Both the position numbers and the translations under genes were made by a program. 64,000 nt of DNA from a virus (lineage: Duplodnaviria > Heunggongvirae > Uroviricota > Caudoviricetes), in the IMG/VR virus record IMGVR_UViG_3300028832_000119, positions 8,924 through 72,923 of that record. One strand, given 5' to 3'. Positions within the stretch are counted from its first letter, which is position 1. Each line of letters begins with the position of its first letter. Positions 5,530 through 49,171 of this stretch are shown here, one piece after another. The notes below the pieces were generated by a model. That model ran no database searches and had not been told where the DNA came from. It worked only from the letters and a program-made list of their open reading frames with translations.

Positions 5530-5732
5530 TTGCAAAGCTTCCCAAGCATTTTTAGCTTTTACAGGTCCAGGAGCAGTTCCAGTATATAAATAGGGATTGT
5601 TAGAAGTTTTACTTTTTTCTTCAATAAAATTATAAAGATCTGTTAAAGGAAAGTTTGAATAATTTCCTGCTCCTTGAGGAATAGGATTATAATAATATTC
5701 TCCGTTTATACCTCTACCATTTATTCCTCCCC

Positions 5733-6398
5733 TTATAGTACCTTCTTGATAAAAGGGATTCCGTTTAAACTACCTCCCTTACGATGCATTTTAAATTGAG
5801 CAATAACAGAACCTTCTTGGTGTTTCTTTATTTTAGAACCACATTTATTTTTTCCAATTCCTTTATTATCTTTTAAAGCTTGGTCTGTTTGGGTTTTAGC
5901 TTTTGGTCCAGAATTTTCTTGTCCTTTCTGAATATCTTTTCCAACTACTATTTGTCCTTTTCTCCATTTATCTTCTCTCTTTTTCTTTTCTTCCTCAGCT
6001 TTTTTTCTATTTTTATTAGCTTCAGCAAGTTGCATCATTTTATTTCCATATTGCATTTTAAATTTGGCAACTGCAGAACCTCCACAATCTTTTTTTACTT
6101 GACCGCCATCTTCTTTCTTCTTGCAGCCACAACCAACAGAACCGCCTTTCTTATAATAAACTACTTCTTCATCTTCAGCACATTGATTCTTCAAAGATTT
6201 GAAGTAATTTAATTTAGCACCATGAGCGGCTTTTTGAGCTTGTGCTTTAGAAGCTTGGGCCTTTTCTTTTTGGTATTCAGCATAATATTTTTTTACTTCA
6301 TCCTAATTCTTTGGGCTATATTTCTTAGCTTCTAGCCATTTCTTAAAATTTGCTAATTCCTTCTATTCTTCTGGAGAAAGTTTTTTGTTATTATCCAT
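5733..6398 (-). CDS. Lys/Glu-rich hypothetical protein, ~221 aa, 2 in-frame TAG
   Basis: ATG 6396-6398 (MDNNKKLSPEE-TAG-KELANFKK...) continues into ORF 5733..6194 and ends at TAA 5733-5735. Confidence 0.45.
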
Positions 6399-8587: not shown

Positions 8588-9199
8588 TTACTTAGAATTA
8601 TCTTTTATATACTATAAAATTCCTTCAACGTGAAGTCTTACAATAGCATGAAAGCCTTCATCACTGAGTAAATAATCTACATCTTTTTTATTATCCTAAA
8701 AAAAGTTTTCCGTTAGTACCGCAGGACAATTAGTATTTTTAAGAACATATAAATGAGCTTCTTTATCTGGATCTCCATCCGAAAAATCAGTTCTCATTTT
8801 AGCGTCCTTTAGATTTGTTTTTGCTGCATTATATAAACAGGTTGCAAGCTCATCAGCTTTAGTTTTACCAACTGATGTAAAAACTTCCCAACCTGTTCCC
8901 TCATGCCATTTACCGTCAGAACCGGAGGCATTTACATGTATAGAAACATAAATACAGTTTTTGTACTGTTTTACTAATTCATTAACAACTTTACATCTTA
9001 AACATAATTCTTTTGATTGAGATACTCCTAAGTCATCATCTTCTACATCAATAAAGACTTTATATCCCATATCTTTAAGAATCGCTGCAGCAGCTTTACA
9101 AACTTCTCTAGAATATTTATATTCTCTAAATTTTCCATCTGGAGAACCTTTTCCTAAGATGCTTTTCTAATGAGCTGTGCCAAAAACAACTGTAATCAT
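8588..9199 (-). CDS. N-acetylmuramoyl-L-alanine amidase (Amidase_3) endolysin; 3 in-frame TAG
   Basis: Core ORF 8696..9070 has SIHVNA and NCPAVLTENFF motifs. Reading through TAG 8696 gives the canonical Amidase_3 C-terminus (DNKKDVDYLLSDEGFHAIVRLHVEGIL-TAG-YIKDNSK) ending at TAA 8588. N-terminus MITVVFGTAH-TAG-KSILGKGSPDGK starts at ATG 9197-9199, which overlaps the upstream TGA (ATGA). Confidence 0.65.
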
Positions 9200-11574: not shown

Positions 11575-11994
11575 TCAGTTCTCATAATACAATGTCATTA
11601 AATATTCTTCTGTTATTTCTTTAATTCCAGTTTTAGTAGTTGGGTTCCATATATGATTCTTAAAGAGTTCTCTCATTGTAGGACGAGGTTCATCTTTTTT
11701 AATAAAGCATACTCTTCTAGTATCATCTATGTTCGAACGAACTATTACTTTTGTTACATCTTTCATATAATCCTCTAGCTCATTGCTAGGGGATTTTTCT
11801 TTTTTAATAGGATTATCTATAATTTCTATATCATCTATAGATAATTTCATCCTTTTTAATTTCTTCTCCAGATTTGGAGTAGTGATTATTGTTCCTTTAT
11901 ATTTAAATGTTGTTTCCATAGTTGTCCCACTAGGATTCGAACCCAGGCTAAAGGATTTAGAGTCCCCTGTACTGACCATTATACTATAGGACAA
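11575..11994 (-). CDS. hypothetical protein (139 aa)
   Basis: Intact ORF, standard code. Confidence 0.45.
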   Translation of the reverse strand: MSYSIMVSTGDSKSFSLGSNPSGTTMETTFKYKGTIITTPNLEKKLKRMKLSIDDIEIIDNPIKKEKSPSNELEDYMKDVTKVIVRSNIDDTRRVCFIKKDEPRPTMRELFKNHIWNPTTKTGIKEITEEYLMTLYYEN

Positions 11995-28995: not shown

Positions 28996-29109
28996 GGCGG
29001 AGTAGTTAAACGGAAAATGAGTATCTGTTTAGTTACTTACAATATCGTATTTATTAACGCAAATTTGTCACATTTGAAAATAGGGGTTCGACTCCCCTCT
29101 CCGCCGCCA
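28996..29109 (+). tRNA. tRNA-Asp-like (GTC) with ~40-nt insertion in the D-loop; CCA encoded
   Basis: GGCGGAG...CTCCGCC-G-CCA acceptor, D-stem GTTA/TAAC enclosing AACGG + insertion (contains TTACTTACAA), canonical CAAAT-TTGTCAC-ATTTG anticodon arm, AGGGG-TTCGACT-CCCCT T-arm. Confidence 0.45.
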
Positions 29110-30002: not shown

Positions 30003-30079
30003 GAAGGGTTCGTCCAGTGGTAAGACTGCAGTTATGGTTATGTCAGCTGTAGAACAGGGGTTCGATTCCTCTACCCTTC
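30003..30079 (+). tRNA. tRNA-like gene with enlarged (15-nt) anticodon-region loop; isotype undetermined
   Basis: GAAGGGT/ACCCTTC acceptor, GGGG-TTCGATT-CCTCT T-arm, TGCAG...CTGTA stem around TTATGGTTATGTCAG. Confidence 0.3.
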
Positions 30080-30186
30080 TCAATTATCTATGGAACTTGA
30101 CGAAATAGGGGTCGCGCAGGAAGCAGCTTATAAATCATGACCCGCTGCTAAGATCAATAAAGTAGATAATTTGTCCGACGGGACAG

Positions 30187-35863: not shown

Positions 35864-35956
35864 CTCGGTTTTAGTTAAACAATTTTGAGATACTTACCAT
35901 ATCAAAGAACTAAATATTGGTAAAAATACAAATTTAAAAAATAGTATCTCTATGAT

Positions 35957-36549
35957 GGCTCCATAGCTCAGCTGGATAGAGCAACTGCCTTCTATTAAAA
36001 TTGGATGCTATGGCAGGAAACTCCATAGTAGAATCTCCCTAAAACGGTGGAAATCCTTTTAGCCCTAATATATTTTAGGAGGATTTTCTGCGCTGAACAA
36101 TTGCAGAACACTAACCAATAATGTGTAAGGATAATACCGTGCTAAATTGAGTATAATATTAATGACTTGGTAACATAGAAACGAGTAGCGCAGTTGATAT
36201 TAAGACTCATAAATGTGTAGAGAGTATAGAGGAGATACCTAAGTTGAAATTTTAGATTTGTGAAGTTAGTCTAAGTATTTTCAGGTGAAATAAACTGCGC
36301 TCCCTTATGGTGAATACGTTAAGCTGTAAGACAAGTTGCGGAAAAATAAAAGAAAGGACTATATAAGCAAATTTAATCTTGCAAGAGTTTCAATATGGTA
36401 AAGATGTATTCCAGACTACAACAAACAACACAATTGTCCTTACGAGGGCATGAAACTGTGAATTAACACTGGTCTGTGAAAATGTTTGGCTATGGTAACA
36501 TAGAGTAGCAGGAAGCAGTAGGTCCTTGGTTCGAATCCAAGTGGAGTCA
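35957..36549 (+). tRNA. tRNA gene (probably Arg, TCT) split by a ~500-nt putative group I intron in the anticodon loop
   Basis: 5' half GGCTCCA-TA-GCTC-AGCTGGATA-GAGC-A-ACTGC-CTTCT... at 35957-36004. Matching 3' half ...GCAGT-AGGTC-CTTGG-TTCGAAT-CCAAG-TGGAGTC-A at ~36509-36549. The intervening sequence is structured and contains a group-I R-like element (CCAGACTACA, ~36412) and a candidate P7 partner (ACTGGTCTG). No alternative 5' acceptor strand lies near the 3' half. Confidence 0.45.
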
Positions 36550-36652
36550 CAAATTCTTATACTAGATACAGAATGTTTTTTTTCTTTCATGATAAAATTA
36601 AATTTTTCCATTTGATTATAGATAGGAGGAAATTCTAGTTAATCCTCCAATC

Positions 36653-36727: not shown

Positions 36728-37393
36728 CCTATCTTTAATGCATAGATATAAAACAGCATTAGTGGTACTATTCCTTCTCAAAGTTAATAGCGTAAGTTAA
36801 TGTCTTTTACGATAGTAAAGCATCGATTTTCTCCTTAAAGTTAGAAAGTGAGACGTTTGGTTTTGTTAGTTTTACAGCGTGAAGTAAAAACTAATAGGAT
36901 TATCGGAACGATAGGTCGCTCCTATGGGTAGATAATTAACAATAATGGAGTTTGGCAGATTCCATTATTAATTGGGCCTTACAGGATTAGACGGCTGTTG
37001 AAGGTAATAAGAACAAGCAAAGACGGATGGAAAGACATCAAATAATTAAATGGCAATAAAGCTAAAACTGTAACCATCGGTAGCAGAAGCTTCCGTATGG
37101 CTGCCTAAGTTGGTAACTTACTTAGTCGTCAGAAAGTTACAATAATAGAAATTATTAAACTTAAGTCATTAAACAAGGGAGCCTTGGTCCTTCTAATTGA
37201 CTGATTAGTAAATTATAGGCTGGTGGAACTGATGACTATCCAGTCATCCCCTTGGAGAAGAATAACTCCTTAAAAAATTGAAAAGCTTGTATAATTCTTA
37301 TAGAATAAGCAGTTCGGACGAGGTTTCGACTACCTCAAGGTCCACTTTATTACGTTATTTATTAACGAGATACTTTACAAAATCATATTTTAT

Positions 37394-48990: not shown

Positions 48991-49063
48991 GCTCGTATAG
49001 TTCAATTGGCAGAACGGTGGTCCTCAAAACCAAATGTTGAGAGTTCGATCCTCTCTATGAGCA
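48991..49063 (+). tRNA. tRNA-Trp-like with apparent UCA anticodon (candidate opal/UGA-reading suppressor); C at position 33
   Basis: GCTCGTA/TATGAGC acceptor, GTTC-AATTGGCA-GAAC D-arm, TGGT-CCTCAAA-ACCA anticodon stem-loop (anticodon TCA at 49024-49026), ATGTT variable loop, GAGAG-TTCGATC-CTCTC T-arm. The body closely parallels the CCA-anticodon tRNA-Trp at 51545 and E. coli tRNA-Trp, except loop CCTCAAA versus CTCCAAA. Confidence 0.4.
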
Positions 49064-49171
49064 CTAAATAATAAATTGTTAATTTTTATTAAATTCATAA
49101 GTTTGAGTTTGAATTTTCAAACTTAAAAATATATTTATAGTACGAAGATTAAAACCCCTTCGTCTATTAAT

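Follow-up and report, generated by a model that had tools for sequence, protein, structure and literature searches.

The closest described systems to the element reported here are the group I introns of subgroup IC3 in the transfer RNA (tRNA) genes of bacteria, namely that of the tRNA-Ile(CAU) of Azoarcus and those of the tRNA-Leu(UAA) of Anabaena and other cyanobacteria, which measure ~200-250 nucleotides (nt), have no open reading frame (ORF), interrupt the anticodon loop and form a short P1 helix with anticodon bases. The phage introns of T4 (td) and Twort belong to subgroup IA. The element in question is a 519-nt insert in the anticodon loop of a tRNA-Arg(UCU) gene, found in a 64,000-nt stretch of DNA (the window, in what follows) from a virus of the Caudoviricetes (IMG/VR record IMGVR_UViG_3300028832_000119, positions 8,924 to 72,923). 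On the basis of its sequence we read the insert as a group I intron of the bacterial tRNA clade (IC3-like), which would splice by the textbook mechanism, and we give this reading a probability of about 0.88. Like the Azoarcus and Anabaena introns, it has an anticodon-loop host, a short P1, the core blocks GUGUAGAGACUA.A...ACCUAAG and UA.GGU.AAG..AUAGUCCAGAC.ACAA, a GAAA loop L2 together with an 11-nt receptor in P8, a GNRA loop L9, a P9.0 helix just before the terminal guanosine (omega-G), and no ORF. On the other hand, it reaches its greater length through four enlarged arms, its host is a phage tRNA-Arg(UCU), its P7 has a G-U pair where the Azoarcus and Anabaena introns have C-G, its J6/7 is 2 nt longer, and the Rfam model RF00028, which finds bacterial IC3-type introns, does not find this copy.

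The alphaproteobacterial (Agrobacterium-type) intron of tRNA-Arg(CCU) occupies the same site, between tRNA positions 36 and 37, and has the same core; it differs in the isoacceptor, in a guide of the GGG/GGA type, in being half as long (228-255 nt in the nine recovered among the matches listed) and in residing on a bacterial chromosome. The tRNA-Arg(UCU) introns of Bacteroidota and Campylobacterota, compared here by description only, share the tRNA host and likely the host phylum of these gut phages; those exceeding 500 base pairs (bp) carry PD-(D/E)XK homing endonuclease genes (PMC13011429, mSystems 2026). The same survey counted 333 bacterial tRNA group I introns with a mean length of 257 bp, 12 of which exceed 500 bp, all 12 with endonuclease genes; no ORF-less tRNA intron above 500 bp is therefore among the 333, whereas the copy in the window is of this kind.

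As regards phages, the group I introns known to Hausner et al. 2014 (PMC3984707) were all in protein-coding genes, despite the many tRNA genes that phages carry. Those of crAss-like phages were found by means of endonuclease ORFs, again in protein genes (Yutin et al. 2021, PMC7886860), and the RNA family of the window's intron also includes the one in the primase gene of cr116_1 and IAS virus, whose host is a protein gene. For Lak megaphages, Devoto et al. 2019 (PMC6784885) described tRNA introns as unprecedented and enigmatic; only short inserts were reported, identified by tRNAscan in eukaryote mode and left unclassified. These phages resemble the window in having introns in the tRNA genes of a large gut phage, and the Lak group I introns that we observed seem to be unannotated in that work. 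Our literature search, whose scope left out most subscription journals, found no description of group I introns in phage tRNA genes. Elements of this kind are well known but have hardly been reported from phage tRNA genes, and for a copy without an ORF the present one is of unusual length.

Two halves of one tRNA-Arg(UCU) gene

Inspection of the sequence identified 35957-35993 and 36513-36549 of the window as the two halves of one tRNA-Arg(UCU) (Table 1). ARAGORN in intron mode called a tRNA-Arg(tct) at 35957-36550 with a 519-nt intron and with boundaries identical to those that we assigned, and, when the exons were joined, it called an ordinary 74-nt tRNA-Arg(tct), in which the CCA end is not encoded. 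Default ARAGORN, and Rfam at the gathering threshold, both run over the whole window, made no call at this gene. By BLAST, each half found its counterpart in Synechococcus phage DSL-LC03, where the two alignments fall within an unbroken stretch of 71 nt (91.7% identity), and the 5' half matched annotated tRNA-Arg genes of many phages. The 25-nt anticodon-arm junction expected after splicing was present uninterrupted in at least 120 viral contigs. The junction is unambiguous because the 7-nt anticodon loop fixes it, and U35993, the final base of the 5' exon, is the U at position -1 of the 5' splice site. The observation of a split tRNA is confirmed as real, far beyond chance.

A sequence-only reading of this DNA had already proposed that a group I intron of ~500 nt interrupts the anticodon loop of a tRNA-Arg(UCU) gene, and that splicing would give the loop CUUCUAA. 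Both proposals were borne out, the latter by the joined exons and the former by the boundaries and by the bacteria-only models and the covariation reported below. The halves themselves and the place of the 3' half were also correct; the 5' half, instead, had been extended to 36004, with 11 nt of intron included, while its true end is at 35993.

Homology to bacterial tRNA introns and predicted structure

A covariance model was built from bacterial tRNA introns only (43 non-redundant sequences). At 236 positions the full-length model was too long to calibrate and was therefore split into two halves, R1 and R2, which were searched over the whole 64-kilobase window on both strands, with E-values that come from a short calibration and are rough. 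R2, covering the guide, P2, the 5' strand of P3, P4 with both strands, and P5, gave its sole significant match at 35997-36165 (27.7 bits, E ~2e-4, with a 71-nt insertion in P5); R1, which starts with J6/7, P7, the 3' strand of P3 and P8, gave its own at 36206-36324 (20.6 bits, E ~2e-4). The two matches are on the plus strand, collinear and within the insert. A second viral tRNA-Arg(tct), at locus L043, has a 523-nt relative at the same site and with the same guide, and there R1 threads the whole 3' half (E=2e-8).

The alignment of the 43 bacterial introns supports the textbook group I structure, P3/P7 pseudoknot included: 94.4% of the proposed partners pair, against 29-42% when partners are slid, and 38 of 53 pairs show compensatory changes. 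A core-only alignment of 27 non-redundant viral members, the peripheral loops of which were excised at anchors that we chose, behaved in the same way (91.3% paired against 35-41% for slid partners; compensatory changes in 32 of 50 pairs). In both sets the guide covaries with the anticodon of the host; among the 27 viral members, GAG goes with CUU in Leu, GGA with UCU in Arg (the window and L043) and GUG with CAU in Met.

At E<=10 over 35900-36620, Rfam assigned the insert to no family, whether group I, group II or any other; what it returned was a chance-level mascRNA-menRNA (E=8.2) and, for the exon halves, two weak and partial matches to tRNA. The lack of any matching family would be expected if the insert were an unrelated mobile element or a structured RNA gene, or if the halves were separate genes joined in trans. 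Against this, validated group I introns align collinearly with the insert all the way from the guide to omega-G; the insert contains no terminal repeats, transposase or ORF; no group II family was matched; and the halves lie on one strand, with correct polarity and with exact complementarity between anticodon loop and guide. We regard this explanation as effectively refuted by the matches of the bacteria-only models and by the viral covariation.

The helices of the group I intron were assigned by homology, and the peripheral assignments were supplemented by folding of the arms (Table 1). All 54 proposed pairs of P1-P9, the P3/P7 pseudoknot included, are standard in the window. The guide sequence is GGA, and the wobble pair U35993-G36003, flanked by C-G, U-A and A-U, marks the 5' splice site. 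In P7, G36220, the bulged A36221 and G36222 face C36411 and C36412, which matches the invariant bacterial GAGACUA/UAGUCC and would form the guanosine-binding site; this P7 reads GAGUA/UAUUC rather than GACUA/UAGUC, a switch from C-G to G-U that is seen in seven viral members, the window among them. The catalytic-core block has a single match in the window and is also hit by R1; it is conserved in crAss-like and Lak phages and is present also in bacterial introns that pass RF00028. The features of subgroup IC3 are the GAAA of L2, the 11-nt CCUAAG/UAUGG receptor in P8 and the GNRA loop GUAA of L9, and the core is collinear with introns of the Azoarcus and tRNA-Leu types, yet the four enlarged arms are unlike the compact IC3 architecture. 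The contacts of L2, of the P8 receptor and of L9 are assigned after the Azoarcus structure. As to the terminal G, relatives with trusted boundaries inspected by eye likewise end in G; in the aligned sets, for which only ARAGORN calls ending in G were kept, it is not independent evidence.

Some elements had been placed differently at first. The segment CCAGACTACA (36411-36420), taken as the R element, is made of the last two bases of the 3' strand of P7, J7/9 and the 5' strand of P9.0; the true R-type element is GTGTAGAGAGTATAGAGGAGATACC at 36213-36239. Its supposed P7 partner ACTGGTCTG (36468-36476) falls within the peripheral P9a arm. A P7 pairing of CAGAC with GTCTG is ruled out, as these segments belong to P9.0 and P9a and the conserved P7 is elsewhere.

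Table 1. Window coordinates of the exons, of the predicted intron and of its assigned elements; percentages refer to pairing in the viral family.
Feature	Position	Strand	Description	Basis
5' exon	35957-35993	+	GGCTCCATAGCTCAGCTGGATAGAGCAACTGCCTTCT; tRNA positions 1-36; acceptor 5' strand, D arm, anticodon stem 5' strand, C32 U33, anticodon U34 C35 U36; ends ...ACUGC CUUCU	sequence, ARAGORN intron mode, phage tRNA-Arg matches
Predicted group I intron	35994-36512	+	519 nt, GC 35%, no ORF, between tRNA positions 36/37	ARAGORN intron mode with U(-1)/omega-G rule
P1 hairpin	35991-36005	+	35991-35994 / 36002-36005; U35991 C35992 U35993 and A35994 with U36002 G36003 G36004 A36005	
P2 hairpin	36006-36030	+	36006-36016 / 36021-36030; GAAA tetraloop 36017-36020	aligned by R2
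P3	36034-36038 / 36231-36235	+	UCUCC / GGAGA	99.3%; 5/5 pairs covary
P4	36044-36049 / 36135-36140	+		R2 alignment; 98.8%
P5	36054-36055 / 36130-36131	+	encloses ~72-nt extension 36057-36128	R2 alignment with 71-nt insertion, arm fold
P6	36148-36152 / 36205-36209	+	52-nt extension	85%; 5/5 pairs covary; arm fold
Catalytic-core block	36213-36243	+	GUGUAGAGAGUAUAGAGGAGAUACCUAAG; J6/7, P7 5' strand, P3 3' strand, P8 5' strand with CCUAAG receptor half	
P7	36220-36226 / 36407-36412	+	3' strand UAUUCC; bulged A36221	99.4%
P8	36236-36245 / 36392-36400	+	CCUAAG 36238-36243; UAUGG 36394-36398	100%
P8 extension	36247-36391	+	145 nt, variable among relatives; shared only with L020 (~70% identity)	
P8 3' strand, J8/7, P7 3' strand	36392-36412	+	contains UAUGG receptor half	
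P9.0	36414-36419 / 36505-36509	+		100%; U-A/C-G covariation
P9a arm	~36424-36489	+	enclosed by P9.0; contains ACTGGTCTG	
P9 hairpin	36490-36494 / 36499-36503	+	GUAA loop 36495-36498	96.3%
omega-G	36512	+	final intron base	sequence, ARAGORN intron mode
3' exon	36513-36549	+	AAGCAGTAGGTCCTTGGTTCGAATCCAAGTGGAGTCA; A37 A38, GCAGU anticodon stem 3' strand, variable loop, T arm CUUGG-UUCGAAU-CCAAG, acceptor 3' strand, discriminator A	sequence, ARAGORN intron mode, joined-exon call

From this structure we infer the following course of events. The gene would be transcribed as a precursor of ~590 nt, in which the intron would fold into its P3-P9 core, braced by the docking of the L2 GAAA on the P8 receptor, by the L9 GUAA loop and by the four arms, and P1 would arise from pairing of the guide GGA with the anticodon UCU. 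A free guanosine bound in P7 would then attack after U35993; subsequently G36512 would take the same P7 site and the exons would be ligated. The expected product is the 74-nt tRNA with the loop CUUCUAA, which would be matured like other tRNAs.

The reading as a group I intron has to be set against a number of observations that weigh against it. RF00028 gave no match to the copy of the window, over the same interval and at the same permissive threshold as above (the check proposed by the sequence-only reading), and a compact relative at locus L013 was unmatched as well at E<=1. In the window, R1 mis-threads beyond the P8 receptor, because P8 holds a 145-nt insertion there, and on the isolated 3' stretch 36388-36560, with filters off, it found nothing significant (E=0.34); since R1 alone does not recognise them, the 3' strand of P7, P9.0 and P9 rest on the anchor-based family alignment, whose peripheral loops were cut by hand-set rules. 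Moreover, P1 has only four pairs and P10 at most two, the peripheral arms fold with unremarkable energies (z from -0.8 to -2.3), and in the primase copies described below the predicted junction gives two residues (LK) more than the intron-less crAss001. As to RF00028, no bacterial sequence is among its seeds according to a preprint that catalogued 21 types of bacterial tRNA intron (Williams 2020). In our set, the gathering score was passed in nine of 18 bacterial loci, exactly over the core pattern, and the crAss and Lak copies of the family were missed by Rfam like that of the window. To discard the intron for want of an RF00028 match would therefore be wrong, because this model is only moderately sensitive to this class of introns; the four large peripheral insertions probably hinder it further on the copy of the window.

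These insertions account for the ~280 extra nt of the copy, which sit in arms of ~72 nt on P5, 52 nt on P6, 145 nt on P8 and ~65 nt on P9. They bring the copy to more than twice the usual bacterial length, are AT-rich and fold in a statistically unremarkable way, and, with the absence of an endonuclease ORF and the failure of RF00028, they would fit a group I intron that has decayed and no longer splices, the tRNA-Arg(UCU) being a pseudogene left by an old insertion. Under any recoding of stop codons, TAG and TGA included, the longest open stretch of the intron on the plus strand has 29-43 codons; a 55-codon open stretch at the locus enters from the upstream flank and the 5' exon. We consider such decay quite unlikely. 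All 54 core pairs are intact, including a double change that keeps P7 paired; the U-G wobble, omega-G, the GAAA of L2 and the exact 11-nt receptor have all been kept; and the undamaged exons give a normal tRNA when joined. Furthermore, default ARAGORN called no second tRNA-Arg(UCU) within the window, whose tRNA set is otherwise near-complete, and the codon AGA is probably common in an AT-rich genome. The arms, which differ even among close relatives, all fold back onto core helices, and the lack of an ORF is shared by other long members, since 30 of the 53 viral relatives of at least 400 nt, among the matches listed, have no open stretch of 100 codons; in the remaining ones the P1 loop holds an HNH endonuclease gene.

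In vivo, many group I introns depend on protein cofactors such as CYT-18. The short P1 and P10, the large and fast-evolving arms and the abundance of the family in phages that recode stop codons and have large sets of tRNAs could accordingly be taken to mean that the RNA is group I-derived but relies for its folding on a protein of the phage or the host, or that its splicing is a control point for the supply of tRNA-Arg(UCU). We judge this very improbable: no particular cofactor or regulator is indicated, and the close bacterial relatives of Azoarcus and Anabaena, whose tertiary clamps recur in the copy of the window, self-splice efficiently.

Viral and bacterial relatives of the intron

A 45-nt block of the insert (~36207-36252) was found by BLAST to be conserved in crAss-like phages and Lak megaphages; in Lak-B1 it is followed downstream by a tRNA 3' half, and a member of the family is in tRNA-Leu(UAA). 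A scan for the exact pattern gave 19 further viral copies, most of which interrupt tRNA anticodon loops (Leu-UAA, Met-CAU, Lys-UUU). Four conserved blocks are common to the window and to all 19 copies, and they resemble the core of the small bacterial tRNA introns: the GAAA-capped P2, GUGUAGAGACUAUA, the ACCUAAG...UAUGG receptor and AUAGUCCAGAC. When the pattern was relaxed to GAGA[C/G]TA[G/T]A-N8-ACCTAAG, that is, the 5' strand of P7, 8 nt and the P8 receptor, at least 120 viral contigs and at least 120 bacterial genomes contained it. ARAGORN in intron mode placed 183 of the 257 pattern instances listed inside intron-containing tRNAs, mostly Leu-UAA, Arg-CCU and Met/Ile-CAU. Among the matches listed, the bacterial hosts were Leu-UAA (52), Arg-CCU (9, at the 36/37 site as in the window) and Met/Ile-CAU (7, of the Azoarcus type), and the median intron length was 240 nt in bacteria versus 557 nt in viral contigs. 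By sequence, relatives of the intron are frequent among phage contigs (crAss-like, Lak and others), both within tRNA genes and within the primase gene of crAss-like phages. The window shows no synteny with the loci that bear the closest introns, and a megablast of 15 kilobases around the site against GenBank phages returned tRNA matches only; the genome therefore has no close sequenced relative there.

In the crAss-like phage cr116_1 and in IAS virus the block lies within a gap of ~500-600 nt that splits the DNA primase gene. When the exons are joined after ..CUU and after the terminal G, a single reading frame is restored, and the joined peptide aligns in one piece to ~50 phages with an uninterrupted primase gene. 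The upstream exon in L001 (cr116_1 primase, 1216-1240), and also in L012 and L014, ends in ACT CTT AAA CTT, with two in-frame CUU sites 6 nt apart. Both are complementary to the guide, and use of the upstream one reproduces the intron-less protein exactly. The primase junction thus supports a probable intron with presence/absence polymorphism, without fixing the exact 5' site. The downstream site resembles that of tRNA-Leu (ACUU), and the double site may be the footprint of a transfer from a tRNA-Leu gene.

The family may have moved between tRNA genes and the primase gene with matching changes of the guide; the copy of the window cannot home by itself, because it encodes no endonuclease, and among the neighbouring ORFs a Pfam scan revealed none for an endonuclease or for RNA processing. 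A wider picture, which we put forward as doubtful though conceivable, is that tRNA-type group I introns have undergone a separate radiation within gut phages (crAss-like, Lak and other large ones), where they would have doubled in size by ORF-less arms, would hop among tRNA genes and even a primase gene by retuning a 3-nt guide, and would perhaps be useful to the phage. An intron in the anticodon loop might delay or gate the supply of the tRNA, or might shield the gene or its precursor from host defences directed at the anticodon. In any case, phage tRNA genes commonly harbour the classic bacterial tRNA intron, typically at about twice its bacterial length, and the family offers a natural series of guide retargeting and size expansion on a well-understood ribozyme core. 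It could serve as test material for the effects of peripheral arms on folding and for regulatory or defensive uses of phage tRNA introns. The additional interest of the system, that is, its phage tRNA host, the doubling of size without an ORF and the retargeting of one family among tRNA genes and a primase gene, is modest.

Some of the loci recovered have unusual arrangements. In Lak-B1 (L003, MK250020.1 289800-292841), the tRNA-Leu(UAA) at ~1002-1750 seems to have two group I introns, the first of ~311 nt (~1024-1334) in the D-loop after ...GGAAUUGGU, the second of ~350 nt in the anticodon loop, separated by a 15-nt middle exon AGACACGAGGGACTT; R1 matches both cores (E=1e-9 and 1e-7). The same arrangement was found in L005, L015, L016 and L021. 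The bacterial tRNA intron types that we found described include no group I intron in the D-loop, and the L003 gene appears to be absent from the intron table of the Lak paper. In L008, a tRNA-like element (2078-2182, Rfam 34 bits, with a GGGTTCGAATCCC T arm) is nested in the P9 arm of a tRNA-Leu intron; similar sequence is present in L009, L017 and L019, and it recalls the report on Lak of a tRNA intron that may encode a tRNA. L013 has a second, different group I intron at 5690-5922 (RF00028 47 bits at 5690-5888; R1 44.8 bits), and L020 and L087 have two copies each of the intron family of the window. The pattern matches also include contigs of Bacteroidales metagenome-assembled genomes (Paludibacteraceae, Tannerellaceae and others; L173, L192, L244, L200 and L172). 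At least L173 and L244, from Paludibacteraceae and a related contig, have an AT-rich, phage-like core (AAAUGUGUAGAGACUAUA..., GCUAAG), which hints either at exchange between bacteria and phages or at phage contigs binned into these genomes.

Genomic setting

The window resembles phage DNA, is AT-rich (32.5% GC) and carries, besides a gene for transfer-messenger RNA (tmRNA), more than 34 tRNA genes. Standard annotation (default ARAGORN, Rfam, tRNAscan) overlooks the split gene, and the tRNA set of the phage therefore looks as if it had no tRNA-Arg(UCU), the tRNA that reads AGA and, by wobble, AGG, which are probably common arginine codons in such a genome. Many tRNA genes of phages probably escape notice in the same way.

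The tmRNA gene (36974-37347) is full-length (Rfam RF00023, 67 bits) and lies in the tRNA array, ~420 nt downstream of the split tRNA. Between 28604 and 33870, ARAGORN in intron mode proposed nine more tRNA-like genes with inserts of 8-52 nt, which could be false positives or could have short introns like the 'enigmatic' ones of Lak. One of the nine, at 28996-29109, was also scored by Rfam, as a 111-nt tRNA (53 bits) with ~40 extra nt; at 30003-30081 default ARAGORN gave a tRNA with a 2-base anticodon. Finally, the tRNAs at 11921-11993 (minus strand) and 48991-49064 (plus strand) have the anticodons CUA and UCA and would decode the stop codons UAG and UGA, respectively; this suggests stop-codon recoding in the phage.

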